Positions 4,546 to 62,824 of a DNA stretch of 64,000 nucleotides are shown here, one piece after another (the first letter of the stretch is position 1; every line of letters begins with the position of its first letter). Under the pieces are notes generated by a model. It did not search any database. It saw only the letters and a program-made list of their open reading frames with translations, and was not told where the DNA came from. The translations under genes were made by a program, and so were the position numbers. Location of the stretch: assembly GCA_918797485.1 (NCBI GenBank), contig CAKKNE010000002.1, positions 2,976,001 to 3,040,000 of the forward strand. Reading direction: 5' to 3'. Source of the DNA: Pelagomonas calceolata (taxonomy: Eukaryota).

Positions 4546-4566
4546 CTAGCGGTCGTAAGACACTAG
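4546..4566 (+). promoter_or_regulatory. Recurrent intergenic dyad motif
   Basis: CTAGCGGTCGTAAGACACTAG between divergent genes. Confidence 0.7.
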
Positions 4567-4726
4567 CATTTAGGCCGGCCGGGCGCGCAGCAGCCTCATA
4601 CATGCGCGTCGCGGCCATAGACGTGGACAGCGAACGCTTAACAAGCACCGCAAACCGCCGCGCCAGCTCTGCACCGCGAGAAGGCGCCGCGGGCAGCCAT
4701 CATCGCACCACACCCATGGCCCGCAC

Positions 4727-6325
4727 ATGAGAAGTGCATTGCTCCTAGCCGCCGCAGCCGTCGCCGACGACGCGCCGGACTGGCTGCCGGCGTCGCTGCG
4801 GCGCCTCGGGCCCGTGACGCGGTCCGAACGCCACTGGCAAGAACTGAAAAACTTCTTCCGACCCGGCGGCCCCTCGGAAAACTTCCGCATAGCCGTCGAC
4901 GCGAGCTGCGTCGAGGACGACCTGAGTTATGACACGCGCTTCCGACCGCCGCGACCCTTTTCGGACAGGTCGATGCCCTGGTGGCGCCTCGGGTCTTATC
5001 AGTTAACACATCCGAAATGGTCGCTGGAAGTGTGGCTGCCTCTGGTGATTGCGAGGAGTCGGTGGTACACCGATCACAAGCCGAACATTACCTTAGTACC
5101 TCATGCAAATACTCCGAGAACAAAAAACGGCAAGACGCGGCCGCGCCATGCTTTAGGTTGGTGCCGCGACCGCGTCGCGGCCACGAATCCGCACTGGGGT
5201 GCCAATGGTGATTCATTTTTCTTCGTGGCAGCGTCGTCGCGAGGGCCTTGCTGTGATGGGGGCCAACCGCGCGACCCCGGGTTGTTGCGGCACCACTTCA
5301 TCGGCCACGTTGGGGAGAGGTCAGATGGGCCCTGGCTGTTCCGAGAAGCGCGGTTCGCGGATCGGCTATTGCGGGACTCGCAGTACAAGGCCCCCGTGAC
5401 GAGAGATACGGCGCCGCGCATTCGCTGCTTCGACGAGAGGAAGGACATTTCCGTACCTCCACCAGTATTCCTACTTCGCGACCGCGGGGCCGGCGACATT
5501 CGCGGGAGAAGTGAAGGTGAGGTACCTTCGTCAGACCGAGATGTTTTGGTGCTCGGTGCGGAAGGGGCTTCCGGAGGCCTCGAATATGATTTGAGGAGGG
5601 CCCTGACGGATTTTTACGACCCCGGGGGCCCGGACCGACGGAAATACAATCAGGAGGACCCGCCGATTGCTGGAGACGTCGTCATCCGTTTCCGCGTGCC
5701 CTCGAAAAATTACACGTCCCTGTTAAAGAGGGCGAAGTACTGTCTGGTGACGGAAGGCTTCTCACCCTGGTCACCTCGCTTAACGGAGGCCGTCGCGCAC
5801 GGCTGCGTGCCCGTATTTTTATCTCCTTTGTTAAGGCCGCCCTACGCGTCTGTGCTGGACTACGCGAAGTTTAGTATTTGGTTGACTGAAAAGGACATAC
5901 CGCACATACCTTCTCTCCTAAGAAGGTACGACCATGCGTCATTATTTGAGAATCTGATGCGCGTCAGACCATTATTTGCGTTCTGCGTCGATGGTGGAGG
6001 CGAGGACGGCTGCGGGCGCGGTGGTAGTCTGGGCGTGCCCGGCGACGGGCTGCCCTTTTTGGTGTATGAGATGTTCTCTCGTCAAGTGAACGCTTATACT
6101 GATACGTCCTCCACTCTATTGACGGAGGGCGGCTATACATCCGTGGACTACGCCTGCAACGCGGAGGACGGATCGTGTTCCCTCTCCCTGAAGGACGAAA
6201 GGTGGCGCTGCGCCATGGCGAACCGCCACGCGTGCATGTGCCAGCGCGAAGTGGATGGGGTCTACCGCTACGTGGGCAACACCACAAACCTCAAGGGCCA
6301 CAAGAAAAATTTATATCACAACTAA
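4727..6325 (+). CDS. Exostosin-family glycosyltransferase (GT47)
   Basis: Signal peptide; Y..LLKRAKYCLVTEGFSPWSPRLTEAVAHGCVPVFL..PPYASVLDY GT47 signature. Confidence 0.85.
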   Translation: MRSALLLAAAAVADDAPDWLPASLRRLGPVTRSERHWQELKNFFRPGGPSENFRIAVDASCVEDDLSYDTRFRPPRPFSDRSMPWWRLGSYQLTHPKWSLEVWLPLVIARSRWYTDHKPNITLVPHANTPRTKNGKTRPRHALGWCRDRVAATNPHWGANGDSFFFVAASSRGPCCDGGQPRDPGLLRHHFIGHVGERSDGPWLFREARFADRLLRDSQYKAPVTRDTAPRIRCFDERKDISVPPPVFLLRDRGAGDIRGRSEGEVPSSDRDVLVLGAEGASGGLEYDLRRALTDFYDPGGPDRRKYNQEDPPIAGDVVIRFRVPSKNYTSLLKRAKYCLVTEGFSPWSPRLTEAVAHGCVPVFLSPLLRPPYASVLDYAKFSIWLTEKDIPHIPSLLRRYDHASLFENLMRVRPLFAFCVDGGGEDGCGRGGSLGVPGDGLPFLVYEMFSRQVNAYTDTSSTLLTEGGYTSVDYACNAEDGSCSLSLKDERWRCAMANRHACMCQREVDGVYRYVGNTTNLKGHKKNLYHN

Positions 6326-6326
6326 G

Positions 6327-6800
6327 TTATTGTTCTAGCTTCCGCCGTTTCCGCTTCTCCATCGCATTATTGCGATCCCTCTCGTCCACAAGCGCCTGGA
6401 ACTCGCCGACCTCCCGCTTCGCCGCCGCGTCGGCCAGCCGTTGGCGAGACTCTTCCACTTTCCTATCGTAGGCCTGCTTCTCCGTCAAATGGCGCCACTC
6501 GAAGCCTCGCAAGTATTTCATAGACCAAAGGTCGTCGGCGTGCCGATCGCGCGACCCGCGGCCCATCCTTTCCCCATTGAGAGACGCCGCGACGCGTTTC
6601 GCGATCTTCTTCTCGGCAAATTCCACCCAGCCCTCGACGAAGCGCTTGCCCCGCCCATATTTCTTCTTGTCCTCGCGCGTTTTATTTGCCGCCGCCAGAT
6701 AAAGGTTCGTGATCTCGCCGTGCTGCTCGAGCAGGCGTCTTACCTTGCCCGGCCTTAAGTGGGGCGGGATTCGCGACAAGTAGACGACGCCGCGCGTCAT
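6327..6800 (-). CDS. ESF2: Pre-rRNA-processing protein ESF2/ABT1
   Basis: GVVYLSRIPP, EGWVEF, AKRVAASLNG, DLWSMKYLRGFEWRHL. Confidence 0.9.
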   Translation of the reverse strand: MTRGVVYLSRIPPHLRPGKVRRLLEQHGEITNLYLAAANKTREDKKKYGRGKRFVEGWVEFAEKKIAKRVAASLNGERMGRGSRDRHADDLWSMKYLRGFEWRHLTEKQAYDRKVEESRQRLADAAAKREVGEFQALVDERDRNNAMEKRKRRKLEQ

Positions 6801-7037
6801 GGTTGCTGTTCAGGTGCTCAGCCGGCAGGCGGCTGATCGGCTGAAAGCGGTGCGTTTAGAGACTTCCGCACTCGAAGACGTTGCTTACGTGCTGTCCGCA
6901 GCTGTTTGTCAAGAGCTGTGAGGCTATATGGCAGAGCATCGCCCGCGCAAAGGACTCAGCCAAAAAGTTGACCTAGTGCATCAACTTACTAGCACCGAAA
7001 ATCGCAGGCCAAGTCGCTCATTAATTTTGACACACCA

Positions 7038-7613
7038 TTACTCGTCCTCATCATCCTCGTCCTCGTCGTCCTCGTCCTCCTCGAACAAGTCCACCAGCTC
7101 GAGCCCGCCCGCGTCCCAGCCCTTCAGCCCGCCGGCCACGGCGACGGCGTCGACGCCGAACTGGAGCAGGTACTCCACGGCCAGCGCGCTCTTCGGTCCG
7201 GCCGTGCACGTGCACACAACGATCCGGCCCCCACCGCCGAGCATCGGAGGCGGCCCGCCCGCGATGACCCAGTTGTCCAGCGCGATGCGTCTCGCATTTT
7301 TCGCCGTGAGGGCCGGCACGCCCTCTCGTACTTCGTGCTCCAGCACTTGTTGTTCTGTGCGGACGTCGATGAGCGCTGCGCCTTTCCTCACCATCTCCGC
7401 GGCGTCCGCGGGCGTGACAAAGCGCTCAGGGTGTTCTTCCTTCACACGTGTGGCTCGTGCGACCATCTCTGGGCTCTTTGGGATGAGCTCCTCGGGCGTG
7501 AGCGGCACGTAGTCGGTGCCGGGCCGCACGTCGGCGTATAGGCGCGTCAGTCGTCTCGTATGCAGCGGCCGCGCGAGACGCAGGAGGAGGGCCATCGTCA
7601 CGGTGCGAAGCAT
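7038..7613 (-). CDS. Rhodanese-domain protein with acidic tail
   Basis: ALIDVRT, IVVCTCTAGPKS active-site loop, GGLKGW. Confidence 0.8.
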   Translation of the reverse strand: MLRTVTMALLLRLARPLHTRRLTRLYADVRPGTDYVPLTPEELIPKSPEMVARATRVKEEHPERFVTPADAAEMVRKGAALIDVRTEQQVLEHEVREGVPALTAKNARRIALDNWVIAGGPPPMLGGGGRIVVCTCTAGPKSALAVEYLLQFGVDAVAVAGGLKGWDAGGLELVDLFEEDEDDEDEDDEDE

Positions 7614-7809
7614 CTGTGGTGGCGTCGCGTCAAGCCGTCGCGTCAAGTGCTGCACCAAGCGCTCTCACTGGCAAGTTTCACACACAACGCACGCAATCGC
7701 ACAAAAATGCACGTGGGCGCCGAGCGATCAATGCGGACAACTACTGGGCCCACAGCGTGTGCGTAGGCACGGCCAATGTCTACTTTTTGTGCCGAGCTCT
7801 TACCTGGTG

Positions 7810-7831
7810 CTAGCGGTCGGTAAGACTCTAG
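7810..7831 (+). promoter_or_regulatory. Recurrent intergenic dyad motif (variant)
   Basis: CTAGCGGTCGGTAAGACTCTAG between divergent genes. Confidence 0.6.
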
Positions 7832-8009
7832 GCTTCGGCCGGTACTTTTGCCAAAAGGCTGCCCCGCAGCCCAACGCATGGCCGCCTGGGCGACGGACGC
7901 GTGACCTGGACGCCAACCGAGGCTACCGACGGACTGCGGGCAGCCTCGACGCCACCGAGGCGAGCCCAAACCAACAGCCACCACGGCGCTCGCGAAGGAA
8001 GCCGAGGCC

Positions 8010-9059
8010 GTGGCGCGCTGCCAGGAATTGATTGGAGAAGAACCGATCCACGACCCTCTCAAAACTTTCCGCAACCAGCAATCGACTCTTGGATTGAGCA
8101 AGAAGGCGATGACGGCCAAGACCCATCGCACCCATAAGGAGGTCGACCCCGGCACGCAGTCGCTCATAGACCGCATCGCTGACGACTCTTCGTTGAAAGC
8201 GCCGCCTATGCCGAAAAGGCCCAATCTCAAGTCGGGCACCACCAAAAGCAAGCTCCAGGCGCTGTCGAGATATATTCATGCGTTCGAGTATAACCATACG
8301 GGCAAGTCGTATTTCAAGATGAGCCGCGACCGGGGGCTGAAACATGTGCACTTCACGGCCCGGGAAATTATTCGCGAGGCGTTACCTATCCAGTGCGTGG
8401 AGGCCGTGTTCCTGGCGGTGCATTTGACTGCAGAGTTGGAGTGTCTGGATCTGCGAGTGCCGCTATCGTTCAAGTCGAAATGCGGCGAAGCGCATTATAG
8501 ACATATTGTATTGGCTGTACGGGACGCTTCGACGGGCAAGTGGGGCTCGTTAGGTATCTCTCGAAGAAAAGTATTAGCTTTCAAGGAGCCCACCTTCGAG
8601 AGTTTGTCAACTCTAGTATTAGATTTCCAGCTCTCCTACAAGCAGTGCGACCACGACCTCGTCAAGGTTTATCTCGGGCTGCCCTTCCCGTCAGGGTTAC
8701 ATTCCGTCGACCCCATAAAATGGAGAGTACTGAAACAGGAGTTAACTGATGAGTGGGCGAAAAAAGTCGACAAGTACTCGAAGGACTGCAACTGGGTCCG
8801 CGAGTACCATTTGTCGACCGGTGGGCTCCCGGAGCCCTACAACGGTACCACTAAGGAGCCGAAGGCGGCCGTGCCAAAGAACAAGAAGCGTCGGAGGAAG
8901 AAAAAGAAGAAGAAGGCTGTTGACGAGCCGGCGGACGAGGAGTACGACCCGGAGAAGTACACGGAAGATGACGAGGTCCTCGGCAGCGACAGCGAGGACG
9001 AGAGCGGCTGCGAGAGCGACGGGGCCGTCGTGGCGAGCGACGGCGGCGAGGAGTCTTGA
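8010..9059 (+). CDS. VASH: Vasohibin (tubulinyl-Tyr carboxypeptidase)-like protein; start uncertain
   Basis: YNHTG, EALPIQCVEAVFL (catalytic Cys), FKS, YRHIVL (His), GSLGISRR. Confidence 0.88.
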   Translation: MARCQELIGEEPIHDPLKTFRNQQSTLGLSKKAMTAKTHRTHKEVDPGTQSLIDRIADDSSLKAPPMPKRPNLKSGTTKSKLQALSRYIHAFEYNHTGKSYFKMSRDRGLKHVHFTAREIIREALPIQCVEAVFLAVHLTAELECLDLRVPLSFKSKCGEAHYRHIVLAVRDASTGKWGSLGISRRKVLAFKEPTFESLSTLVLDFQLSYKQCDHDLVKVYLGLPFPSGLHSVDPIKWRVLKQELTDEWAKKVDKYSKDCNWVREYHLSTGGLPEPYNGTTKEPKAAVPKNKKRRRKKKKKKAVDEPADEEYDPEKYTEDDEVLGSDSEDESGCESDGAVVASDGGEES

Positions 9060-9156
9060 ATCTCCGACGCGGCGGCCGCGGCGACGGCGTGGGGGGCGGC
9101 GCGCTAAGTTTTAGTTTGTGTTATCGATATCATGATTCTTATGCGCAATTTGACCC

Positions 9157-11064
9157 CTAGAAGTTGTTCGGCGTGAAGTCGCTGAAGCCGCAGAGCGACA
9201 GCACCTTCGCCGTTAATAGAAAGGCCGCCGTGATGGAGCACTCCAGGAAGTCGCCGACGGGCTGCTTCGAGTAGACCAGCGCCGCCCTCCTAGGATTCGC
9301 GAAGGGCCCCTGGAGCAAGTACTGGTGCATCGTGAACGGCCCGAACATAATCTTCCACCAGATGCGCGGCTTCGTCAGGAAGAGCTTCATTAAAGGTGGT
9401 AAACACCCCATCCGTTCCGCTAGATCGTCCGTATATAACTGGAAATCAACTAAACCTTTGACTCTTTTAGCATCGTACCCAAAGCGCCACTCCCAGTTGG
9501 CCTGGTCCTTTTTGGCTTGGTCCTCCATGCACTTCGTGTCTGGTAAGCAAATGCGGCCATCTACCACCAAAGCGAAATACTTCGCCTGCATCTCGGCGGT
9601 CGGCGGCACAGACCCAAAGGCCGGTCGCGCGAAGCCAAAGAACGCGACTTGTCCGTCGGGAAAGACAGGAACAAAAATCTGCTTGTACAATCTTCTCGGA
9701 TTCTGACCAAAAGCATTTAAATCTTTGGTGCGACACCCGCACTTCGAGCAGATGACGTCTTCCCGGCAGTCGGGGTGGTCGAACATCGGAAATGAGTTCC
9801 TGTAGCCCGTACAAGCGACCACCGCGTCGCAGTCGAAGGTAGAACCATCCGCAAAACAAGCACCGGTATCAGTGAGCTTGAACGCATCTCTGTGGAGTTC
9901 CGCGCCCTTGCACACCATGGCCGTGACGAAGCCCTCGTTCTTACAACCGAACTTACTGAACGCACTGGTCCCTTGCTCGATGTTTAATTCCCCGATCTTC
10001 TGCAGGATCTTCCGCTCCTCCATGGGCTTATCTTGCGAGCCATGTTTCGCGACGAACTTCTTCGCGAGCTGATTGACGTAGCCGACCCAGTCCCCGAGCA
10101 CGTACGGGTTGCTGTAGCGGCACCTGTTGGTGTTGAGATCCGTGACCCTACCGTCAGCTTGCTTCCTCGGTATCAAGTGGCCATGTTTACCTCTCACGAC
10201 AATAGCTACTTTTGATGCTTCACTGGCAATTTCATTGGTGATGTCCGAGCCGGATTCTCCAGCACCTACTACCAGTACTCTTTTACCCTTGAAGACCTCC
10301 GGCTTCTTGTAGTTCTCGGAGTGTACCAAAGTACCTCCATTCTTAATGAAGCAGTCCTGGCCCTCGAAGCGAGGTAAGGAGGCCCAATGATTTGTTCCGG
10401 TACAAATCGCGACGTGGTCGACCGCGTACGTCACGAGCTCGAAGACCGCCTCGGGCTGCATTTTTTTTCTGTCACCGGTCACGTGGTCGAAGTAGTCGTA
10501 CGCATAAGCAGATTTGACTTTTTTGAAGCCTTCTACCTCACATTTCGCATAAAATGCTTTGAGGGTCTTCGCGCCTTCGGTTCTCGCGGCACAACGCTGC
10601 TTTTCGGAAATGTGCCGCCCGAGCAAGAACGTACTACGATGGGGCGCGACGTGGGCGCCGCCGACCTTCACCGTGACGAGCCATTTGCCCGACTTCGGGC
10701 ATTTCGTGACCTTCAGTACTGAGGACCGGAAGCTGATGTGCTGGTACAGCGAGAACTCGTTCGCGAAGCCATCCAAGTAGTTCAGGTACTCCTCGTCGGA
10801 CCAGAAGACGGGCTTGTCTTCTCTCCCATCACTGTAGTCGCTGTACGCGGTGAGCAGCGACGACGTCGTGAGCATCGTCCTGTCGTACGAAGAAGTATAC
10901 ACGCCGCCGATGCGCACGTTCTCGTCGAAGCACTTCACCGTGTGGTTCAGTGCCGTTAATTCTTTCATGACAGCCAGGCCCGAGGCGCCGGCTCCAACAA
11001 CTAAGCAGGACTTCTTCCCCTCCGCTGCTTTTACGACCTCCATGCGTGGCTGCTTCTTGAACAT
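9157..11064 (-). CDS. Flavin-containing monooxygenase (FMO)
   Basis: GAGASG FAD motif, LVHSENYK FMO fingerprint, GAGESG NADPH motif, CTGY. Confidence 0.9.
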   Translation of the reverse strand: MFKKQPRMEVVKAAEGKKSCLVVGAGASGLAVMKELTALNHTVKCFDENVRIGGVYTSSYDRTMLTTSSLLTAYSDYSDGREDKPVFWSDEEYLNYLDGFANEFSLYQHISFRSSVLKVTKCPKSGKWLVTVKVGGAHVAPHRSTFLLGRHISEKQRCAARTEGAKTLKAFYAKCEVEGFKKVKSAYAYDYFDHVTGDRKKMQPEAVFELVTYAVDHVAICTGTNHWASLPRFEGQDCFIKNGGTLVHSENYKKPEVFKGKRVLVVGAGESGSDITNEIASEASKVAIVVRGKHGHLIPRKQADGRVTDLNTNRCRYSNPYVLGDWVGYVNQLAKKFVAKHGSQDKPMEERKILQKIGELNIEQGTSAFSKFGCKNEGFVTAMVCKGAELHRDAFKLTDTGACFADGSTFDCDAVVACTGYRNSFPMFDHPDCREDVICSKCGCRTKDLNAFGQNPRRLYKQIFVPVFPDGQVAFFGFARPAFGSVPPTAEMQAKYFALVVDGRICLPDTKCMEDQAKKDQANWEWRFGYDAKRVKGLVDFQLYTDDLAERMGCLPPLMKLFLTKPRIWWKIMFGPFTMHQYLLQGPFANPRRAALVYSKQPVGDFLECSITAAFLLTAKVLSLCGFSDFTPNNF

Positions 11065-11254
11065 GGTCGTCTAGGAGCTGCTGCGTTAATTGGGCTGCCT
11101 CTTGGTGCCGCGCGGCTTGGCTTCCAGCCTCCGATATGAGGTGGACGCCTCTCCGAAATTCGTGGGTGAAGCGGAGATTTTGGTGGTGAAGCAGCGCTCC
11201 GGGCGACGCCTCGGCTTCGTAGAGGCGCTCCCTAATACGGATGACGGCTGTGTG

Positions 11255-11274
11255 CTAGTGTCTTACACCGCTAG
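11255..11274 (-). promoter_or_regulatory. Recurrent intergenic dyad motif
   Basis: CTAGTGTCTTACACCGCTAG between divergent genes. Confidence 0.7.
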
Positions 11275-11395
11275 CTAGCTACAGTGCTCGGGAGCAAAAA
11301 ACGCTCTGTTTGCCGGTGACGGTGCTATTACGTGCCTGCACATACATCAGGAGACGACTTGCAGTAGCTCTCTGCAGCGACATCGATTTCGTGCC

Positions 11396-14046: not shown

Positions 14047-14712
14047 ACGCGACGCCCGTTGTCGGCGAGGAGGCCTCCCGCCGGGCAGACGGTTCGGCGG
14101 TGCCTCACGCGCCCCCATGTTTAAAGGAAGTTTATCTTCAATCTTTTGTGCTGCGGCTTGTGAAAGGAGACGGGCTGTGGACTCAGGGGCGTTTTTGGCC
14201 CTATTTGGTTTGTATCGTCGGCCAGCCGTTCGGGGAGAGGTCCTTGCACCGAAAGACGTGCTAAACAGATCCGTGCGTGTTTGTGTTTACTAGTATGCTA
14301 GCAGCTAGGTGCTCAGGATTTAGTGTGCAAGACGGACTAAATCGCTCTGTCCGCCACCGTGTCCACGTAAATCGCAGCGAAATTGCTATAGAACGACTTC
14401 AATTAGACGTGTGCACGGCCTCTGGCGAAAGACACGGCTGCGGGACGTCCCTTGGGGGCTAAAAGCCAAGGCCGGCTGGCACCGAAGAGCTGCGGCTCCA
14501 CTCGGCCCGGACGGACCAATGGACTCGCACGCAACACCCGTGGGTCGTGGACAGCCCGCGGCACCAGCGACCGGTGGCCTTCCCGGCGAGACGGGGCGTT
14601 ACACCTGCCTCGCCGGGCTCTGGACATCCGACTCGCATCACTGGTTCCGCCGCGCCGCCGCCGGCGCATGCGACCGCGCGCTCACCCATACGACACGCAG
14701 GTGTGTGCCAGG

Positions 14713-15321: not shown

Positions 15322-15378
15322 ATTGTGGTCTCGGGCGCTCCGCGCGTTGTTGGGTAAGCGGGGCATAGTATACTATTC

Positions 15379-15961: not shown

Positions 15962-16257
15962 CACTGTGGGACCAGGTCTGACTGATAGTCTGGTGAGTCT
16001 GGTGACTCTGGTCCTCTAAAATTCAGAGAGTTTCGCGTTTCAATTGTTTTGATTCGTTCGCCGACGTAAATTTAACAATAAACAGATCCCAAGCGCGTGA
16101 GTATGGTGACTGGTCTTTCGAGCCTAGTGTGTCGACCACGCTAGCCTCACATAATGTTGGTAACAGCACCACTAGCAGCGTGAGCGCAGCGATACCGACG
16201 TGCGTGTGTCATTGCGTTCGCGACGCGCAGAAGTGCTTTCATTTATTCGCTGGAGGC

Positions 16258-16390
16258 GTGCCGCGCGCAGCCAAGCCCAGTAGCCAAAATAGAGTGTCCG
16301 GAGAGCACCAGCCTGCAGTCGTCAAATAACTCTCGCAGCAGTGCCGCGCAGCTGTCCCAGTAGCCTCAAATAGTGTCCCGGAGAGCGCAC
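16258..16390. repeat. Imperfect ~50-bp direct duplication upstream of THUMP gene
   Basis: GTGCCGCGC..CCCAGTAGCC..AAATAG..TGTCC.GGAGAGC twice, about 83 bp apart. Confidence 0.75.
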
Positions 16391-16404
16391 ATCAGCCCTC
16401 AAAC

Positions 16405-17427: not shown

Positions 17428-17448
17428 CTAGCGTCTGTAAGACACTAG
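17428..17448 (+). promoter_or_regulatory. Recurrent intergenic dyad motif
   Basis: CTAGCGTCTGTAAGACACTAG, about 140 bp upstream of ATG 17590. Confidence 0.7.
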
Positions 17449-20292: not shown

Positions 20293-20314
20293 CTAGCGGT
20301 CAGTAAGACACTAG
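20293..20314 (+). promoter_or_regulatory. Recurrent intergenic dyad motif
   Basis: CTAGCGGTCAGTAAGACACTAG between divergent genes. Confidence 0.7.
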
Positions 20315-20935: not shown

Positions 20936-21226
20936 GTGTGGTTGGCCCCAGGCGTGTGTAATGTGAATGTCTACTGATTTTCAGTTGACCGGAACCGTTC
21001 GTGGCGCTAGTGTGTCTGCGAACACTAGGTGTCGAAACTTCGACGAAAGCGGGCCGGACAAAAAAGACGCTGTGTGGGAATCGAACGCCTCATTGCTGCC
21101 GTTCGAAGCTGAGTTACTCCTCGTACCTAGACCCCTCGCGCGCGCCAGCGTTCGGGTCCCTTGGGCGCCGTAGGGCACCAAACAGAGACGCCGGCCGCCC
21201 CGCGGCGGCGCCGAGCAAAGGGTAGC

Positions 21227-27685: not shown

Positions 27686-27867
27686 CGTGCTGGGGTCGAC
27701 CTGTGTCCCCGCGCTCCCCGGGAACTGCGAGAAACAAGCGAAATTGCGGAGAGCACTTCCTAGTGCGTTACATGCCGCTAGCTGCGAAGCATTGACCAAC
27801 CAGCCTATAGCTTGCCTATAGCTTGCCCAAAAGCGTTACGAACGTTCTAACTATTCATTGATCGACC

Positions 27868-28641: not shown

Positions 28642-29095
28642 TAGTTCTCTGTTTGTGTAATTGTTTTCTGTTGTCTTCACCTACGGTCTTGCCGCTGTGT
28701 CTGCGCATGCTCTCCGCTTGATGGGTGGAAGGTCGCTCGTCTATAGAGCTCGTCTAGGCCGGTCGTCTAGGCCGGTCGCGTGACTCGCGTCGACGGCCCG
28801 GCGGGTTGTGATATCCAGCCTCGCGGCGTCCCCGCCGGCCTGAGCGGCGTCTCGCAGGCGTGGGGCGACGCGGTCGTGCCCTTGGAGGAGTGTTCGTAGG
28901 GCGAGGCTAGTGTGTCACCGCTATGATTATCGAAGTCTCTACGCGCGGCAGGTCGGTGCCCTGAGATTACAAAAACAACGTAAGTACGACACCCACCCTT
29001 GGCGCGCGCGAGGCGCCCGCTGCGCCGGAGCCCAGCGCTCGTGTCTCGCGCGCCGCGGCGCCCGCCCGCTTACACATCACACATGGCTCAGCTGA

Positions 29096-32686: not shown

Positions 32687-32708
32687 CTAGCGTGCTGTAA
32701 GACACTAG
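32687..32708 (+). promoter_or_regulatory. Recurrent intergenic dyad motif
   Basis: CTAGCGTGCTGTAAGACACTAG, about 190 bp upstream of minus-strand ATG 32493. Confidence 0.7.
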
Positions 32709-34003: not shown

Positions 34004-34407
34004 GATGTATGAGAGCTCTCTGTTATTTCGTCGCAGCGATGGCGTAACGCTGCGGAACTCGACTCGAGCTCGACCCAGTGATAAGTGCGCAACTCCTGCT
34101 GAATTGTCCGGTGCACCCAGACCAGCACAGCGCGAGCAGACTGCCACTGAGTGGCAGCCTAGGCCTCGAGGCCCGTGCTAGTGCCTCTCTACGCTAGGAC
34201 ATGCGCGCCATCCCTCCCGAAGCCGTTGCGGCACAAACAAGGCGTGAATACACCGACTCTCTAGACGAGGGGCACCTCCTTCTAGTGTACTTTGCGTGAG
34301 CGCAGCGCCCTGAGAGGCAGGCGCATTGCGGCGCCTGGGGCGCCGAGGGGCAGCCTTCAGCCGCGCGGGCAGCCTTTTTCGGGTCTCTCTCGTCGCGCAG
34401 TGGACAA

Positions 34408-43170: not shown

Positions 43171-43662
43171 CATTTGTGTGCGTTTATTGGTGATGATGTC
43201 GTTAGTTATAGACGCCTCGCGCGTAACTGACGTTCCTACGCCGTCGGCTTAAAGCTGTCGCGCTCCCCGCTACACCCGTAGACGCGGCCCTCCTCCGCGC
43301 CATGCGCTACGTAATGCCCGCGCATCTTTTCCGCGCAGCTCGGCTGGTATCGGCCGCTGGGGCAGAGTTTCCGTTCGACATCTTGATACCGCTTCGCGTA
43401 ACACCGTCCGCGACGCGTACCACGTACTCGCCGCCGAGCGGCGGCCCGCGCCGCGGCCGCCGCCGGTCGTCGAGGCGCTCGCGCCCGCGACGGAGCGGCC
43501 GTCCGCGGGGCTCAACGCGCTCGCGCTCGCGACGCAGATGGAGCTATAGGTTTTCCTTGTGTGGATTCTTACTCTCTCTTGCCCGACTACTCTAGTGACT
43601 TAGCTCCGCTGGCATATCATTAACTTGTCAGTTGACGCATTTGACTTCGGAGGGAGAGTACA

Positions 43663-44037: not shown

Positions 44038-44057
44038 CTACGGCTGTAAGACACTAG
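44038..44057 (+). promoter_or_regulatory. Recurrent intergenic dyad motif
   Basis: CTACGGCTGTAAGACACTAG, about 150 bp upstream of ATG 44210. Confidence 0.65.
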
Positions 44058-46999: not shown

Positions 47000-47410
47000 C
47001 GCGGCTGCGACGACGCCTGCGCGCCGGCGAGGCGGGCAGCACTTGGGTGCCGGGCAGCACCCTGGCCTGATGAATCGATTTTTGAGCTAACTGGCGGGTT
47101 TTACGCGGTCTCTGCCAGAATTACTTTGCTTGTCCCACGGACTCGCCTGTTTCGCGCAAAGTCGTCTCTCGGCCAGGAGGGCTAGTGGCTTGTAAGTCTC
47201 TAGAACAAGCAGCAGACTCGAGGCACATCCAAGCTACGGCGCGGTACGAGCTGCGCCGCTTATGAGGCGTTCGTGATCGTCGTCTCAGGTAGCAAATTGG
47301 TCGCGAACCAACTTTCAAGACGTTCGTCCCGGCGCCGCTGAGTACAGCATAGTGCTCTCCCGACACAGCCTTGGCCACACGTCGCCGCAGGGCGCCGCGC
47401 GGCGTAAACG

Positions 47411-48511: not shown

Positions 48512-48515
48512 AAAA

Positions 48516-48962: not shown

Positions 48963-49316
48963 GGTGACGGGTCGCGTGGGCGGCGGCGTCCTGGCTGCCC
49001 TGCTATGGAACAAATCCAATCCACGGGCAGCGCGCCGCGCAAGCGTTTCCCGTTGGCACGGGTCGAAGGGCTGCCTCGACCGAGACAACGGTGCTTTCGC
49101 CGCTCTTGGGCGGCTTTTCGAGCGGATCAAAGCGCCCAGCGGCAGGATGCCAAGGCGCTGGAAGCTCCCCCCGAAGTTTGAAGTCCCGCCGACGCGTGCG
49201 CGCCTTGTGACAGGTCGAACGCGCCCCGAGACGGATCTTCGCGACGACGGCAAAAACCCGCAGCCTCTCGTTTTGTAGCGCCGGAGAGCAGCCGCAAAAG
49301 GCTGCCCAAAGCAGCC

Positions 49317-51935: not shown

Positions 51936-51941
51936 GTTGCT

Positions 51942-52874: not shown

Positions 52875-53059
52875 TTATGCGGCATGCTCTCCAGAGCGGT
52901 TTTGGCTCTCACACCATACAGATGGAATAGAGCGGCGTAAACGTGCTGTCACGTCTTGATGACGACCGCTGACGTTCGTATTCAAGGCTGCGGCTTGCGT
53001 AACGCGCCTCGGACGCTTGCTAGCGTCGTACAGGCACTAGCCCGATCCAGACCTGGCCA

Positions 53060-54690
53060 GGGTTGGGTTTTTTGGCCTTGGGGGGGGGCCGTGGGGTAGT
53101 TTTAGGGGGGGGTGGGGGGGGTTCACCCATCATTACTCGCCGGCTCGAGGGTGGGGGGTGGGGGGGGTCGACGGCGCCGGAGGTGACTACCGTCGCGCGC
53201 GCCGGGCGCGGATTCCGCGAGGAACTCCTAGACGCGACATGAAGTTGTTTGAGCATCGTTCCGTTGGCTGATGGGCCAGAGAGATCAATGGGACACTTAC
53301 TGGGGGGCGAAAAAAATAATTTTTTAAATTCGCGATATTGACGGTCCTACCATGACGGACGCGCCGGTGGAATCCTGTCGGTTCGTGGCGCGGAGGTGTC
53401 CCTGGGGTCGCCTAGGGTCGGTACTAGACACGCGCAAGCGCCTACACCGCATGCGCCGGCGCTTCAAGCATTTTTGGCCGATTTCTCTCAGCAGACCACT
53501 CGGTTTAGCCATCTTTTAGCCATGGTTTGCTTCCAGAGCCCTCCGAGACCACTAGGCTGCTGCATCAATGGCGTATGCGGTACATGCGCTTACCCACTAC
53601 CAGACCTACCCCGAGAGACCTCCAGGAGCCGATCTGCCCCCGAAAAAAGTGTGCAATTTGGACCCGATGGCACCTCGTTCCCGGCAAAAACGCCAATTAC
53701 CTGAGGGCCCCCAGTAGTCGCCGTAGCGGTCTCGTTGGACCCCATACTACCCCAACGATAGTCAATTACGAGTATATGCCATCTACATTATACGAAGGGT
53801 ACTTTTTGCTGCCCACACTCGGGACGTGAACATCTTTATCTGGAGCTCGCTTAAGTCGGTCGATCATGAAACAAATGATCGCGTCATGGTCTATGGTAAT
53901 GGTACACGGGCTGATGGTGCTAGGTCCAGTCAGATGCACGTATTTGGCGAGATACCGTGGTCCCGAGACGGCCGAGCCGCCAAGAGTGTACGGAACCGTT
54001 AATCAAATGTAGTACACGTTTAGGCCGGTTATCTGGCCCGTCCCATAACCGAAGCGCCTGAAACGCGAATTTATTTTATAACTCACCGGTCTGGGGCCTT
54101 TCTGTGGCTCCGTCAACGCACCGTCGTCCGCGGAGAACTGGCAAGTCGGTCGATTGTGAATAGAACAACGGCGTTATGGTCCATCTGGGTGGTGGCGTCG
54201 CTGATACTCGCGGGTTCAGGTTCTGAGCGCGGTTTCAACATAAACGCGGGGCGCGAATTCGTCGTTTCGCGCGGCTCCAACGGGTCATCCAAAATACCTC
54301 AGTAGTCGCTGATTCGGGCTAGATGGAGTCTACCACTACCAAACGGAAGGAAACGAACATAAACGCGAGAGTTGTCTAGTAGAATTCTTTTCCCGCCCTC
54401 CGAGCGCGGGCCGTCGGCTCCGGTTCCGTCGAATGTGTATGAAAACTGGGCTGGAGTTGATATGATGTACCATTTGGATAGTTGATGGCGGCGTCAAACG
54501 CTGGTGTATTTTGGCGAGCCGCAAGACCTGGTGAGCTAGCGTATGGACATACTAGGATCCGTATTTTGAGAGGGTGTTGGGGGGGGTCGTCTCATTTCTC
54601 CGACCGGTCCCAGGGAGGGGGGTAGGGGGGGTGGCACGAGGTCTCTAAAAGGGGGGGACGGCCCCCCTGGCTGGCAAAAAAACCCAACCC
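53060..54690. mobile_element. Non-autonomous TIR element (~1.63 kb), no transposase ORF
   Basis: Ungapped 46-bp imperfect inverted repeats (33/46, first 14 bp identical: GGGTTGGGTTTTTT); lower-GC interior; no TSD found. Confidence 0.7.
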
Positions 54691-54795
54691 AGCGCAGACT
54701 TTTAACGAGCTGCCAGCCCATTGATACATTCTATAGCCCGAGAAAAATCAAACCAAAAGAAGTCTCGTTGCATGCGAAACTTGGCACAAGCTAAG

Positions 54796-55872: not shown

Positions 55873-55894
55873 TTGTATGCACACACACATTGCC

Positions 55895-57140
55895 TTACGC
55901 AGCCGATGACCGCGCGATGAGCACGATCGCCGCGCCGTACAGACACAACATTGCCCCAATGTAAGCGAGGGCCCGCGGCGACGCGTGCTCGGCCTCGCCC
56001 CAGTAAAACAGCCCCCATAATGCCGCGACCGTCGGCGAACAACGAGCGACGGACACGGCAACCGTCACGCCGATATCTTCGCCCGCGATGAACACCAGCA
56101 CGGCCCCGCAGAACCAGGCCGCGCCCGCGACGAACCCGTAGCCCCAGGCGGCGCTGCAGATACCGACGCTCGGCGGCTGTTTCGAGCCCGACCGTCGGAG
56201 GTAGGCGGCTCGGACGGGCAGGAGGACGAGGCAGAATAGCAAATGCGACAGGCCCAGGACGACCATGAAGGCCGGGACCTGAGTGGAAATCAAATTCACG
56301 GCGCCCCGCGACGTTGTCCTGTAATTGCGTCAACCTAATTCACTGGTTGATTTCCACACAGGCCGGGACCGTCGCTCCCGCGTCCACGGCCAGCGCCTCG
56401 CCCGCGGGCCAGAAGCTCAGCAGCACGCCCGCCGCCACAGCGCGGCGGACGCCTCTCCGTGCGCCCTGCGGCTTGTCGTCCCACTGATTCTTCGTCTTCG
56501 TCGGCGAGAGCGCGTCGACCAGGCGCTCGATCGGGACGCACGCGTCGTCGCTATGGTCGCTGTCGAAGACGTAGTCGAGCTCGTCATCATCTCCTTCCGG
56601 GAGGAACTCGACCTTGCCCAGCGACCGGCCGCGCTTCAACGCTGAGGCTCCGAGCAGGCCGTCCTCCTCCGGCGGCGCCCCCCGGGGCTCGTTGTCCGCG
56701 AGCCGGAGCTGCGCCAGGGCGTCGAGGGCCACGGCTCCGAGCACGCACAGCAGCGCCCCGAGCAGCGGCCCCACGTTTAGGGCGTCCCGGTCCAGCAGGT
56801 AGAGCAGGAACGTCCCCAAGGTCATTTCGATACCCATCACCACAGGATAGCTCAACGTCACGCCGACCATCTCGATGGAGGACAGGAAGCACATGCTGCC
56901 CCCGCACCCGCACAAGCCGCCAAAGATGCCGTAGAACGCCGCGCCGCGGTGCCCGCCGATCGCTCGTACCTCCGGTGCCGCCGCGACGGCGAGCACCATT
57001 GCGCTCGCGCCGACGCCGACGCTATAAGCTTTAAAGAATAAGGACCACTGCACGGCGCTGGCCTTGGCTAGGGTCCCGATGCTGCCCCACAGGCAGAGTG
57101 CCGTGAGGCAGAGGAGCCAGCCTGCTATTGATGAGTTCAT
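55895..57140 (-). CDS. DMT-superfamily membrane transporter (TMEM144/sugar-transport-like), 2 exons (intron 56279-56369)
   Basis: LWGS, G.TLSYP, P.VAALWGLFYWGE; join AGAT|VPAFM. Confidence 0.75.
56279..56361. mobile_element. Introner element 5 (GT-AG intron 56369->56279)
   Basis: TIR CTGAGTGGAAATCAA / TTGATTTCCACACAG; perfect 8-bp TSD GCCGGGAC (56271-56278, 56362-56369). Confidence 0.95.
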
Positions 57141-57500
57141 CACGAGTTACGAACAGCTTGTGGGCTGCCCATGGCATGGCATCTCTTGCCTCGGGTATTC
57201 GCAGAGCATTCCAGCCACCGCCGGAAAAGCGGTGTTCAAAGGTCGCCGGCGACGCATCCAAGCCGCCTCCGGACGGTTCCGTGCGCGTTTGGAAGGCTGC
57301 GTTTTGGGCCGGCTGAAAAAGTCTGCTTTTTACCCAGTCCAAAAAACAGGCTGCGTTTGAGCCTATAATACACCCCAGGACGCGCAGGACGCTGCGCAAT
57401 GGCGTCTCGGATACGGCGCTGTATACGCTGAAACGCGAGGGCGACTAAAACGGGTTAGCAGAGCCGATAGACAACACCAGAAGGCCTGGTTCTCTCCGCC

Positions 57501-58235
57501 ATGTTAGCCGCGACGAGGATACCCCGCGCCCTCGCCGCGCTGGCCGAGGGCCCCACAGCTTTGTATACGCGCGGCGACGCCGTCGCGACGGCCCATCCCG
57601 TGCTCTTTGGCATGGTTTGCGCGGGCTTGAAAACGGTGGCCGCCGACCTGACCGTCCAGACCGTGGTAGAAAAAAAACAACTGCATGAAGTAGACAAACG
57701 AAGAACTATTACTTTTGGGCTCTTCGGCGTGGGTTACTTGGGAGGTATACAGTACGCGGTTTTTAACAAAGTCCTGCCGGCCATGTGGCCGCGCGCGTCG
57801 AACTTCGCCATGCGGAGCTCCCACGACAAAATAAACAACACGAAGGCTCTACGGAGCCTAGTTGGTTTAGTTGCTACCGAACAACTCATTCATACACCGT
57901 TTGTTTTTTTACCGTGCTTCTACATGACCAAGGAGGTCGTCGAGGGCGACGGTAATGTTGATGTTGCTTTGACGAAGTGGCGCAGAAATATAATCCCGGA
58001 CATGTGCGCGGACATGGTCATCTGGGTGCCCTCGAACCTTGTTAATTTTGCGTTCGTCCCCCAACACTTCCGCGTGCCGTTCGTCGCGCTGACGTCGTTC
58101 GCCTACACGATGGTGCTGTCGTTCATGCGCGGCGGCCAGAAGCGCGATGTTGTCGTCGAGGAGCCTGTCGTGCTCGAAGAAGCGCCGGTTATTGAGCCGC
58201 TCGCGGCCGTCGCGTGCGTCGCCGCGACGCCGTAG
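57501..58235 (+). CDS. Mpv17/PMP22 family membrane protein
   Basis: ADLTVQ, D.RRT..F, IWVPSNLVNFAFVPQHFRVPFV..SF. Confidence 0.88.
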   Translation: MLAATRIPRALAALAEGPTALYTRGDAVATAHPVLFGMVCAGLKTVAADLTVQTVVEKKQLHEVDKRRTITFGLFGVGYLGGIQYAVFNKVLPAMWPRASNFAMRSSHDKINNTKALRSLVGLVATEQLIHTPFVFLPCFYMTKEVVEGDGNVDVALTKWRRNIIPDMCADMVIWVPSNLVNFAFVPQHFRVPFVALTSFAYTMVLSFMRGGQKRDVVVEEPVVLEEAPVIEPLAAVACVAATP

Positions 58236-58504
58236 AATTTGCAGAAGAAGACCCCCCCGCCCGTGTGCATTGCTGTAGCATGCTGTTGCCGCTCGTTCGT
58301 ACTAAGAAACATGTAGATAGTCGTCTTCTTCGGCGCGGCGATGGCGTGGAGGCTTGACCTCCGTCCGGCGCGACGCGCCGACTCCCCGGGCCCCTGTACA
58401 TAAAAGTATGCGCCTCGAGGTATTGTTACGGTGCTAGGACTAGTGGTATGCGCCTCGACGAAACGCTCAGGCTCAGGCTAGTTACGTCGCAGGGTAAACG
58501 CCGG

Positions 58505-58526
58505 CTAGTGTCTTACACGCCGCTAG
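58505..58526 (-). promoter_or_regulatory. Recurrent intergenic dyad motif
   Basis: CTAGTGTCTTACACGCCGCTAG upstream of msrA. Confidence 0.7.
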
Positions 58527-58844
58527 CTCCGGGACAGCGTTCATTACCTCGACGTGTTTCGACCGTGCCGTCGATATTTGTCGCTGGAGAAGCTGCGCAA
58601 ATTGTTGTTCAATCCCAGCGCTCGCTGAGCTCGATACTGCTTTGCTGCGCTGCTCGCTGAGCTCGACACTGCTTGCAAGTGCTGCGCAGCGAGTGCAGCA
58701 CATACATGGCAGTGCGCACGCGCAGCGGCCGCCGCAGCGGCGCAACACCCCTCAACGGAAGTGCAGCGGCGCCATACGAGTGGAAGCTCGACGCCCTCCT
58801 CACCGTCGTCTACCTCGCGGTGCTCTACTACTGGCGCTAGAACG

Positions 58845-59642
58845 ATGAGAAGAGCACTCGTCCTCGCCACAACAACCGCGCGGGCCGTGCGCTTCGGCCG
58901 CGTGCTGGCGCCCGTGGGTTTGTTGGGAGGCGCGAGCCTGCTGTCCAGTGCGCGCGCACCCGTGCACGAATCAAATGTCGCTCGCCCACAGCTGACGCGA
59001 CGCTCTCATCGTTGATTTGCACACAGGCGAGCGCGGAAAAAGATCGACTACGAATCATTGACGGGCCTGCCCGAGAGCTGGGCCGCCGAAGCCGCCAAAC
59101 ACGCATTAGCTGGCAACACACCCACAAGGTCCGACGGCGGGTACGAGATAGCGACCTTCGCCGGCGGCTGCTTCTGGGGCGTCGAGCTGCGCTTCCAGCG
59201 CGTGCCCGGCGTCATCGCGACGGCGAGCGGCTACGTCCAAGGGCATAAATCTGAGCCGACCTACAAGGAGGTCTCGGCGCGGTCCACGGGCCACACGGAA
59301 GCGGTCCAGCTCATTTTCGATCCGGGCGTTGTGAGTTATGCGGACTTGCTGGAGATCTACTGGGACCGACTGGGCGACGACGCCACGCGCGCCAACGCCG
59401 TTGGCAACGACCGCGGGCCGCAGTACCGCTCCGGCGTCTACGCGCTTTCCGAGAGACAGCTCGCCGCCGCGGAGGCGTCGCTATCAAAGCGCCAGGAGCG
59501 CTTCGCGAAGCCGATCGCGACGGAGGTCGAAATGCAAAGAGGCGTCTTCTGGCCCGCGGAGGAGTACCACCAGCAGTACCTCGAGAAGGGCGGCCAGTCC
59601 GCCAGGAAAAAGGAGACGGAGCCGATCCGGTGTTATGGGTAA
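58845..59642 (+). CDS. msrA: Peptide methionine sulfoxide reductase A, 2 exons (intron 58952-59026)
   Basis: FAGGCFWGVE, TGHTEAV, GNDRGPQYRS, AEEYHQQYLEKGG, IRCYG; targeting-peptide exon joins in frame. Confidence 0.93.
58960..59026. mobile_element. Introner element 6 (GC-AG intron 58952-59026)
   Basis: Ends CCGTGCACGAATCAA / TTGATTTGCACACAG; TSD GCGCGCAC/GCGAGCGC (6/8). Confidence 0.85.
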
Positions 59643-59647
59643 GAGCC

Positions 59648-60433
59648 TTATGTTACACTACCAAACATCTTGCCGAACAGCGTCGGCCGCCGCCGCTGGT
59701 ACAGGAACACGTCGGTCCCGCCGCCGGCCGCGTTCCACGACATCGCCGCGCGGCGCTTGCCTACCCGATCAAAGGACTCGCTCGGGAAGTCGCTCAGCGT
59801 CGCAATACTCGCGACGGTACTCGCGTCGAGCGCGCGGCCGAGCTTCGCCAGCATGCAGTCGTCGAAGAGGAGCGAGGCGACGTACGCGTGCGACACCTCC
59901 AGCTCCGGCAGTGCGGCGAGGATGTCGCCGTGCACGAACTCGGGCGCGGCCGCTGTTGACAAAGCGGCGGGTGCGTCGTCGTCGACGAGCAGGCGCGCGA
60001 GGCCCTCGACCGCGCAGTCGTGCCGCGTGCGCGAGAGCTCGACGCCCACCGACGACTGCACATGACATTCGAGCCAGCACTGCGCGACCATCCGCCCGGC
60101 ACCCGAGCCGAGGTCGGCGAATGACGCATCCTCAGGCGCGTCGTGGAGCAGCCCGAGCATGTCGAAGACGGTGCGCGCGCCGCCCGCGACGACCTCTCCA
60201 TAAGTATTGCCGAACTCGCCCGCGATTTCATCGATCGCGGCCTCCTCGTCCGGCGTCGCGCGGTGGCCGTCCAGGCCGCGCCAGGCGCGCTCGACGGCGC
60301 CATCAATGGCCTCGCGGCGCAGCATCTCGGCCGGCGTCCGCGGCGCCGGCGGCGCCACCGGGGCCTGCGGCACGAGCCCGGACGCCGCCAGCGAGGCGAC
60401 GGCGACCGCCGTCGTAAAGGGGTCGACGCGCAT
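59648..60433 (-). CDS. DOT1-like SAM-dependent methyltransferase
   Basis: TYGEV, FADLGSGAGRMVAQ, SVGVELS..RH, HGDI, AYVASLLF, MSW. Confidence 0.8.
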   Translation of the reverse strand: MRVDPFTTAVAVASLAASGLVPQAPVAPPAPRTPAEMLRREAIDGAVERAWRGLDGHRATPDEEAAIDEIAGEFGNTYGEVVAGGARTVFDMLGLLHDAPEDASFADLGSGAGRMVAQCWLECHVQSSVGVELSRTRHDCAVEGLARLLVDDDAPAALSTAAAPEFVHGDILAALPELEVSHAYVASLLFDDCMLAKLGRALDASTVASIATLSDFPSESFDRVGKRRAAMSWNAAGGGTDVFLYQRRRPTLFGKMFGSVT

Positions 60434-60669
60434 ATTCTTTTTTCAATTATCGAAGCTTCGTAACTTGTTTTTTGGGGTCCGCGCGTACTCCGCTTCCAGC
60501 TCCTTGATCTTGTCCTCAGTGGTTTATATCTGTGGCGCAGCGATGTACTCTGAGCTGCCTGCAGCTCACTGATGCGTGCGATTGCTGCCACAGCGATAGC
60601 TACGAGCTATGCCTAGTGCCAGTAACACGCTCACCAGTAACACGCTCACCAGCACCGGCAAAACGCGAG

Positions 60670-60689
60670 CTAGCGTTGTAAGACACTAG
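60670..60689 (+). promoter_or_regulatory. Recurrent intergenic dyad motif
   Basis: CTAGCGTTGTAAGACACTAG upstream of minus-strand ATG 60433. Confidence 0.7.
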
Positions 60690-60781
60690 GAATCAGGTAC
60701 GCGAGACACTTAGCCAAGCGAGAGACCGAGTTGGTCTGTCATGCGGGTTGCCCCGGCGGGCGGGGGGAGACGGGCGCGGCT

Positions 60782-61827
60782 CTACCACTGGTCCTGGCGA
60801 TCCGGCCGGCGGACGCCAGCCTCATCGCGGATCTTCTCGCGGAAGACGAAGCCCGGCCGCCCGCCGTCGTCCGCGTGCTCGTAGGGGTGCTCCTGGCGGA
60901 ACTCGACCGCGCGCACCGTGAGGTCGAGGCCGTTCGCCTCGATCGCCGCGACGGACCGCGGTGGCAAGAGCCATGCGCGCGCGATCGTCACCGTGTCCAA
61001 GTAGGGCGTGAGTACCTGTGTAAGCGACCACGTCAAGCATATAAAGTGCGATGGTGCGCTGGTGCGAGCCCAGATCCGGTTCCCGGTGCCGTCGGAGAAG
61101 ACGTCGACGCGGATGCGGTGAGCTTCGAGGAGGCCTTCCGCGGGGAACATGTGCTCCGGGCCATAGAGCACGACCCGAAACGCCATGCCGAACCAGAGCG
61201 ACAACCAGTGGACCTCCTCCCACTTCGACCTCTCCTTCAGCTTCGCCAGGAGCGCGATGACGGCCAGCAGTAGCGACAGCATGTGCGCGTGGTGCCAGCC
61301 CACCGGTATAGTAATGTTTTCGAAGTAAGAGTCGTCCCACTCGCCGACGCCCTCGTTTGCCAGTTTATAACCAATACAACCGAACAAGTAGTGCGCCGTC
61401 CCGTAGAGCTTACCGAGGTCGTCGTTACCAACACCGATCGGTCTCTCTTCGAAGGGGCCTACGTGCGTCATCTCCAACATGCCCTCAAAGGCCTCGCCTA
61501 GCAGTAGTAACGGGCTCAGCGTCCGCTTGGCCGTGTTGTCCATGAACCTGTGTCGAGACCATGCCATCGACGCGACGACGACTCGTCGACCCCACGCCAT
61601 CGACCCGACGGTACACCGACCGCAACGCAGTCGTCGACGTGACGCGGAGTACTCGAACTCTTTGATTTTCACACGGTCGCGTGCTGCACTGCCATTTTCA
61701 CGCCACCGCCCTCCGCGTATTTTTGCACGAAGCGCGTGGCACCCGCGCAGAACTCCTCCACGTTCTTATCAAATTTTAATTTGTGCTCGGCCGTGGCGCG
61801 GCTATACATGTCCCTGTCTCTTATCAT
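60782..61827 (-). CDS. Hypothetical protein, at least 2 exons (intron 61548-61684); start uncertain
   Basis: In-frame join KMAVQ|FMDNTAK after removal of the introner. Confidence 0.55.
61548..61676. mobile_element. Introner element 7 (GC-AG intron 61684->61548)
   Basis: Ends CTGTGTCGAGACCA / TTGATTTTCACACGG; two copies of the GCCATCGAC core; donor 8 nt outside the element. Confidence 0.85.
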
Positions 61828-62802
61828 CTGATCGCGCCAGAGGCCTGACAGCAAAAAGTCGACGGCGTACCACCCTCGCGCGGAGTCCTGCGTTGGCGGA
61901 TAAACCCCTGACCCCTCCTGAAGTGTATGCTGGTATGGAAGTGTTTTGACCCTTCGTTCTTCCTTCCATGTTGCCGATTTTTACATGTTTTGCCACCAAC
62001 ACGCGATCTCGAACTTGGCGCGGATCGCGCCCCACGCAGCAGTCGCCGCGGCCGGGGCGAGGACGATTACAACAGATCCGGCTCCGCGGCCCACTCCTCT
62101 TCTTCAAAGCGCTTCGAGCGCGGCGAAGGGCAGCTTGTACAACAGGCACGGCTCTGCGGCCATGAACACGCAGACGCTCCGCGTCCGCCGCACGAACTCG
62201 TGCGTCCCAATAATGGTGGACAGTCAGGCGGCCGCTCGCGACTATATACAGCGCATCATCATGCCCCCGTCGGCTCGTCGGCTGCTCCAAGCGGTAGCAA
62301 TGCCTCGCCCGATTTCAACCTCCTTGCCTCGGCACATTCACTCAGGCCGGGCTCCGCCAGCAATGCATCTATCTCTGCATCAGCTGCGAAGCCTGATAGG
62401 TGGTCATGGCGTCGACGCGCATCGTCACCTGCGGGGGGTTCGCTCGTGCCAGCGGTGTGCGAAACGTCTCGGAGACACGAGTCCCGAGCGCGCGTCCTCA
62501 GTTCTCCAAGGTGTGGTTGTGAGTTTCTTCCACATGGCGTTTCCGCTCAGAGTCTCAGGTCTCATTAAGTGATCGTCATCGGACGTGTGCGCGTGAAAAA
62601 TGCGTGGTTACTGCTCGGTGCTGAGCTTGGCAATTTGCCTGAATCCCAGCAGCGGTGCCGCGCCGCTGCAGGCAGCCGCTGCTGTCACTTTTAGAGCCTT
62701 TGCGATAATAATTCGCTCGCGCACTGCCTGTTTGCACAGCTGTGTGGCTTTTGTCCAGGCCTCTCTCTCTCGCTGCTTACCCAAACTCTGAGGCTGGCGC
62801 CG

Positions 62803-62824
62803 CTAGCGCGCTGTAAGACACTAG
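62803..62824 (+). promoter_or_regulatory. Recurrent intergenic dyad motif
   Basis: CTAGCGCGCTGTAAGACACTAG, about 110 bp upstream of the GST ATG. Confidence 0.7.

Follow-up and report, generated by a model that had tools for sequence, protein, structure and literature searches.

Promoters in several eukaryotic lineages carry recurrent sites that stand close to the start of transcription. The yeast sites for Reb1, Abf1, Rap1 and Cbf1 lie singly and in either orientation ahead of many unrelated genes, and in yeasts the main promoter-opening role passed from Cbf1 to Reb1 via a redundant stage (PMC2897762). The vertebrate CGCG element, TCTCGCGAGA, is a 10-bp perfect palindrome of TATA-less housekeeping promoters with divergent starts (PMC6192621), while the INR+FPR element of oomycetes overlaps the start, is directional and occurs in ~13% of genes (PMC3599244). 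Here we describe a dyad motif—(AG)CTAGYG, a loose spacer N2-4, then GTAAGACACTAG(CA)—in a 64,000-nucleotide stretch of the pelagophyte Pelagomonas calceolata (GCA_918797485.1, contig CAKKNE010000002.1, positions 2,976,001 to 3,040,000, forward strand; hereafter “the window,” meaning this whole stretch). An earlier note, made from the sequence, had proposed the dyad as a general promoter element upstream of most genes. We consider it likely that the dyad is the candidate binding site of one abundant general promoter-opening factor, swapped with another in a distant relative.

The dyad may work like a general regulatory factor site. Like the yeast sites, it is orientation-free and stands once ahead of many unrelated genes, and, as in the Cbf1-to-Reb1 switch, sites are replaced wholesale between lineages while the promoter layout is kept (PMC2897762). 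Unlike the yeast sites, it is longer (~30 bits, two arms, a spacer varying by 3 bp), occupies about two-thirds of the promoter regions in the window, lies only 11–36 bp from RNA starts and is replaced at the same aligned position, as known here from sequence and RNA ends. With the CGCG element it shares a palindrome-like site and divergent starts on both sides, but that element serves a subset of promoters and is conserved across vertebrates, whereas the dyad is asymmetric, has double the length and occurs in a restricted set of lineages (PMC6192621). The oomycete INR+FPR and DPEP elements are likewise lineage-specific stramenopile motifs near the start with no TATA box; whereas INR+FPR sits on the start, the dyad stands ahead of it in either orientation, and an abstract-level comparison finds no common sequence (PMC3599244). 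The kind of site is known already; what is new is its sequence, its length, its frequency and its in-place swap. A search by title and abstract start for Pelagomonas, pelagophytes and Aureococcus, with most subscription papers outside its scope, found no published description of the dyad; a literature search for the literal 12-mer gave nothing relevant, and neither “motif” nor “promoter” occurs in the main text of the Pelagomonas genome paper (preprint and article).

The window is gene-dense, intron-poor, eukaryotic nuclear DNA of 62% G+C; its proteins have many marine metagenome relatives in public collections, and one named relative comes from Aureococcus anophagefferens. Our hand-made gene model comprises 38 genes, with coding spans filling 80% of the window. 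A two-block matrix (spacer 2–4; strong sites >16 bits) found 19 strong sites, compared with none in 10 order-4 Markov sequences of equal length; it was seeded on 16 of the 19, leaving only 6973, 43592 and 44038 as non-seed hits. The exact 12-mer GTAAGACACTAG is present at all nine positions reported earlier (7 on the + strand, 2 on −), where order 0–4 Markov models of the window with sites masked predict 0.0007–0.003 copies (i.e., <0.01, as had been supposed). The full CTAGCG arm accompanies it in 8/9 copies and reads CTACGG in the ninth (44038). Nine of ten variants listed in the earlier note also pass the matrix; the tenth, 28907, is weak (5.1 bits, reached by 7.5% of 200 shuffles), and the site at 43592 had been missed.

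To the 19 window sites we added seven from other loci, leaving out one doubtful hit (L001), a copy in L010 that duplicates L006 and three prokaryotic hits. Site length in these 26 copies is 20 bp in 7, 21 bp in 6 and 22 bp in 13. Information amounts to ~30 bits over the site and 2 bp on either side, a figure inflated by five of the seven added copies having been found by the exact pattern, and farther out, between 3 and 40 bp beyond the arms, it does not rise above background. One A of the right block is invariant in 26/26 copies, the orientation of each having been chosen by us. The two inverted CTAG arms described earlier are there, though not as a true palindrome: since the right block bears extra fixed letters, the dyad is a bipartite, asymmetric site. 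Near-inverted arms might suggest selection on structure, whether a hairpin or cruciform in the DNA or a small folded RNA; yet perfectly complementary 6-bp arms occur in 1/26 copies, the usual form has a fixed mismatch, a search for compensatory arm changes in the 26 copies found none, and folds are weak (−0.3 to −7.1 kcal/mol). Scans of the window for tRNAs and Rfam families gave 0 hits, and listed RNA ends stop short of the dyad, making such a structure extremely improbable. Fixed asymmetry, missing compensatory change and weak folds together point to sequence recognition by a protein, and an arm-to-arm length that varies by 3 bp suggests either two recognition domains joined by a flexible linker or a pair of molecules that cooperate.

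All 19 strong sites lie outside coding spans, in keeping with the intergenic location first noted. A strong dyad stands in 17/25 promoter-bearing regions (divergent 10/13, tandem 7/12), one site per region, and the genes downstream belong to unrelated Pfam families, in line with the divergent pairs of unrelated function noted earlier. The claim that it marks most genes holds for these 17 regions and not for the other eight, three of which hold weak sites (12446, 14290 and 28907, with scores reached by 4–7.5% of shuffles) and five nothing. Convergent gaps carry no dyad (0/12) but, at only 1–97 bp, are too short to count.

Transcript ends were taken from raw stranded poly(A) reads (four runs, all of one sample; strand sense checked against known genes) mapped to window positions 3000–22000 and 44001–64000, with two 5′-end rows (6605 and 13446) excluded as falling within a gene or on an intron boundary. 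In 6/7 strong sites having a listed end, an RNA 5′ end falls ~11–36 bp from the site edge (one range extends to 43), as measured from RNA-seq ends only; if starts were evenly spread from ATG to site, the chance of 6/7 ends within 35 bp would be ~2e-4. Starts lie off either arm, and the dyad has no fixed orientation relative to them, as the note had held; a core promoter element of the TATA or Inr type, which has a fixed orientation, was rejected on this point. Promoters without a strong site have listed 5′ ends at 13037–13051, 14366, 49132, 49300, 57142–57157 and 57341–57350. Many leaders in the window are 140–230 nt long and reach up to the dyad, and long 5′ leaders with introns occur at 13041–13462 and 62427–62626 (in the latter, RNA reveals a 198-nt intron at 62428–62625).

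The same layout bears on a structural alternative, in which the protein bound at the site would mainly have a structural task, whether as a roadblock or boundary separating tightly packed genes, as an anchor for nucleosome phasing or as a mark for replication licensing, and promoters adjoin the site as a by-product. Free orientation, the existence of some expressed genes without a dyad and the position of the dyad 46–93 bp behind the upstream stop codon in five tandem cases would suit it. Yet the dyad is commonest in divergent regions (10/13), where there is no upstream gene to stop, and RNA starts hug it on either side; we consider this alternative unlikely. One site per region, free orientation and starts a few tens of bases off either arm fit a factor that clears DNA and acts in both directions.

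A metagenome search with the BRICK1-like gene returned nine loci, two of them (L012, L013) 98–99% and five (L011, L014–L017) 74–88% identical to the window. At the site matching 20293, the left arm keeps 9/9 letters in all four informative lineages (L011, L014, L015 and L016), and the right block keeps 12/12 in three (one with a one-base insertion) and 9/12 in L016. At this one locus in four lineages, the arms are 75–100% identical, compared with 25–75% for the spacer and 62–80% for the 60-bp flanks, and thus the arms are retained above their surroundings in diverged sisters, a conservation that the earlier note had left to be looked for. The site matching 21007 is inverted and shifted in L011 and L014, has the window form in L017 and is degenerate in L016. 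As the arms are conserved while spacer and flanks drift, and as the L011/L014 copy is flipped, shifted and still there, the dyad is kept as a function and not as a fixed piece of DNA.

These comparisons also weigh on the idea that the copies are what a dispersed transposon with a preference for open promoter DNA left behind, as neutral relics or as footprints of excision. The CTAG at both ends can be read as a target duplication, and the genome has active elements, introner-like ones among them. Yet information is at background 2 bp beyond the arms, the sites are unclustered with one per region, and a site remains after flipping; neither target-site duplication nor extended flank homology was found in the 26 copies over 40 bp on each side, which agrees with the flanks having been called non-homologous. 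Homology that ends ~2 bp beyond arms that do not covary argues against relic and hairpin alike. Selective conservation appears largely to refute the relic explanation, which we hold to be highly improbable. RNA 5′ ends, arm conservation in sisters and the lack of transposon-type flanks together support the promoter-element proposal.

The distant lineage represented by L018 and L019 shares its gene order with the window across most of 18 kb, with 65–82% identity in aligned blocks, and there a different word is found. No dyad above 8.3 bits occurs in the 8 promoter-bearing regions of L019, vs. 17/25 regions with a strong site in the window (Fisher p = 9e-4). Instead, the word AAACCCGCAC is present in 8/8 promoter regions: AAACCCG or ACCCGCAC occurs in all eight L019 regions vs. 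1 hit in 13,099 coding bases and vs. 3/25 window regions (p = 1e-5). As the word was first spotted by eye, it was tested against the best word in shuffled sets; ACCCGCAC occurs in 6/8 L019 regions, and no 8-mer reached 6 in 300 such sets. The dyad and AAACCCGCAC are mutually exclusive at aligned positions. For seven orthologous promoter pairs (in two of which the dyad is a weak one, picked before the outgroup had been looked at), the offset of the word from the dyad centre is −2, −4.5, −4.5, −6, −15 and −24 columns, one pair being unalignable; finding it within 25 alignment columns in 6/7 pairs has P = 2e-5 with an even null, rising to 1.5e-3 with a stricter null. Between the distances from dyad to ATG and from outgroup word to ATG there is only a weak correlation (Spearman p = 0.16, Pearson p = 0.03, n = 8). 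Window promoters show no enrichment of the AAACCCG word, which stands in 3/25 regions and has 6 hits across 51,403 genic bases, and this makes “leftover” copies anecdotal. A third lineage was sought among viral contigs, where the six loci found were unrelated and all without the dyad.

Thus the dyad is lineage-restricted, and another word holds its place in a more distant relative, which suggests that place matters more than word. The promoter-opening factor was probably exchanged in evolution, and either word may be the older. The outgroup word, and not the dyad, may resemble AAACCCTA and TTACCCG of telobox, Reb1 or Tbf1-type Myb sites; at L019 660–700 it is mixed with telomere-like CCCTAA. 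A bolder version, which we entertain only tentatively, is that one pelagophyte clade rewrote its main promoter signature genome-wide and in place, thousands of promoters giving up the Myb/telobox-like AAACCCGCAC in favour of a novel 30-bit dyad; its reader would be a new master factor, perhaps derived from a transposase, that sets the starts of most genes in both directions.

A mobile origin could in principle have supplied such a site: a mobile element may have scattered the copies, or a transposase turned host protein may read them, the arms being old element ends now under selection. This would be a route to the promoter-opening factor, not its opposite. The ~30 bits of information and the restriction to one clade would accord with it, as would the degenerate copy inside an inverted-repeat element, and the arm CACTA gives what we take to be the first letters of CACTA-type transposon ends. 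The element (53061–54689) is untranscribed, 1.63 kb long, with G-rich 40-bp terminal inverted repeats, no long open reading frame and an apparent 3-bp CAG target duplication; we take it to be PIF/Harbinger-like. Yet the arms face the wrong way for a single element, and flanks are not shared. The BRICK1 promoter has TGGAGCTA and GCAT common to both lineages with 22 differing letters between, and the light-harvesting and CDC48 promoters also differ little in length between the window and L019; in-place replacement with little or no length change fits substitution, not insertion, and a transposon-derived site seems very unlikely. Fits to p53, RFX, a Helitron 3′ end, a 12-nt intron and spliced-leader relics were considered and dropped as poor.

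A single promoter-opening factor would account for these patterns as follows. The protein would read two CTAG-centred arms via a flexible link; once bound, it would clear a short stretch of DNA, letting polymerase start on either side. Like the general regulatory factors of yeast, it would exclude nucleosomes and set start sites, and in tandem regions it may also separate neighbouring genes. Between lineages, one factor and its word would have replaced, or been replaced by, another in place.

Several observations weigh against this interpretation. Expressed genes start in the eight promoter-bearing regions without a strong site (49132/49300, 57157/57342, 13041), and genes at the top of the expression range have only weak sites or lack one altogether. 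The RNA 5′ ends are RNA-seq read ends, not capped starts, and are only among those listed; the 11255 site, 115–123 bp from its listed ends, is the sole exception of seven. The 1.63-kb element parts a dehydrogenase gene from the 53020 site, and that gene is still expressed. In the sister lineages, other promoter blocks are kept equally well (e.g., 20363–20440). Finally, the swap rests on one outgroup lineage and 8 regions with flanks only 35–53% identical, and its word was noticed by eye before testing, the 7-mers alone not being significant (74/300 shuffles).

Table 1. Dyad sites and related words in the window; distances are from the site edge to the RNA 5′ end.
Feature	Position	Strand	Context	RNA 5′ end	Remarks
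dyad	4546..4566	+	divergent, MYND-TPR gene / GT47 gene
degenerate dyad	6973..6992	.	tandem	6938 on −, 35 bp
dyad	7810..7831	+	divergent, rhodanese / vasohibin	7797–7799, 11–13 bp
dyad	11255..11274	−	divergent, FMO / DUF1295	11132–11140 (listed), 115–123 bp
weak dyad	14290..14308	−	upstream of light-harvesting gene	14366	8.5 bits, 4.5% of shuffles; aligned to AAAACCCGCAC of L019
dyad variant	16124..16144	−	divergent, THUMP gene
dyad	17428..17448	+	tandem
dyad	20293..20314	+	divergent, PP2C / BRICK1-like		arms kept in L011, L014, L015, L016; double AAACCCG word instead in L018/L019
dyad variant	21007..21028	−	tandem		orthologue inverted and shifted in L011 and L014
dyad variant	27760..27781	−	divergent, CS-domain gene
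weak dyad	28907..28925	−	upstream of CDC48		5.1 bits; aligned to GCACCCGCACG of L019
dyad	32687..32708	+	tandem
dyad variant	34178..34197	−	divergent
dyad variant	43592..43612	−			17.7 bits; absent from the earlier list
exact right block, broken left arm	44038..44057	+			AAACCCG word immediately upstream (44026–44032)
dyad variant	47182..47203	+	divergent	47222 on +, 19 bp
AAAAACCCGC word	49252..49261	+	divergent, without dyad	49300, 39 bp	possible remnant of other word
dyad variant	53020..53040	+		52986 on −, 34 bp	inverted-repeat element ~20 bp to right
degenerate dyad	54536..54555	+	within untranscribed element 53061–54689
dyad	58505..58526	−	tandem	58543–58569 on +, 17–43 bp
dyad	60670..60689	+	tandem
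dyad	62803..62824	+	divergent	62767–62786 on −, 17–36 bp

Other features of the window and its relatives deserve mention in their own right. The MYND-RING-TPR gene at 3208–4545 belongs to a very high-copy family, with contig depth far above its neighbours and many variant reads. Two DNA read runs compared with the window differed from it in none of the 16 listed pieces. Introner-like introns lie at 21942–22056 (missing from L011, L014 and L017), 25830–25990, 33540–33610, 56269–56360, 58952–59026 and 61570–61680; their ends are of the GTGGAAATCAA / TTGATTTCCAC type, and splicing of two was seen in RNA. A second repeated word of 21 bp, TGTTACGGTGCTAGGACTAGT, stands behind stop codons in sense orientation at 32750–32770 (−) and 58424–58444 (+), the latter flanked by a 13-bp direct repeat; it also follows BRICK1 in three sister lineages (L011 2431, L014 1976, L016 1145) and not in the window. 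Within the PP2C/BRICK1 promoter, a GGGGTTGCGC block (20166–20176) is kept in L011 and L014–L016, and also at L019 8373 without a dyad. A multi-domain gene at 24673–27685, with an AP2-like stretch by eye and no Pfam hit, has no counterpart in L018/L019, whose syntenic position is occupied by other genes.

Beyond these loci, the exact pattern has 0 matches in viral contigs and 10 hits in prokaryotic genomes, seven of them near the ends of marine metagenome-assembled genome (MAG) contigs, six of these in eukaryote-like segments. The copies at MAG contig ends are intergenic and, by our reading, ~125–200 bp from an ATG; two more MAG-contig copies were found beyond those matching the exact pattern. 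Contigs L006 and L010 represent one locus with identical intergenic DNA and hence say nothing on conservation, and three lone hits in plain prokaryotic context (L003, L008, L009) were taken as chance, being fewer than the ~50 expected by uniform arithmetic. The MAG-contig copies support a spread of the motif beyond the window; by extrapolation, a genome of ~32 Mb would hold ~9,000 sites at window density. The motif-bearing contigs with eukaryote-like ends (L002, L004–L007 and L010) are likely chimeric, with mis-assembled algal DNA, and the motif could act as a contamination marker in prokaryotic MAGs.

If one long site does mark about two-thirds of promoters, it would open a way into the gene control of a very abundant marine alga. 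It would, if true, help to predict start sites, supply compact bidirectional promoters for genetic tools and, as pull-down bait, aid the search for a master factor. The exchange between two lineages of conserved gene order makes testable how thousands of promoters can change their main site yet keep their function, and, with wild lineages at graded distances present in metagenomes, the intermediates can be sought.

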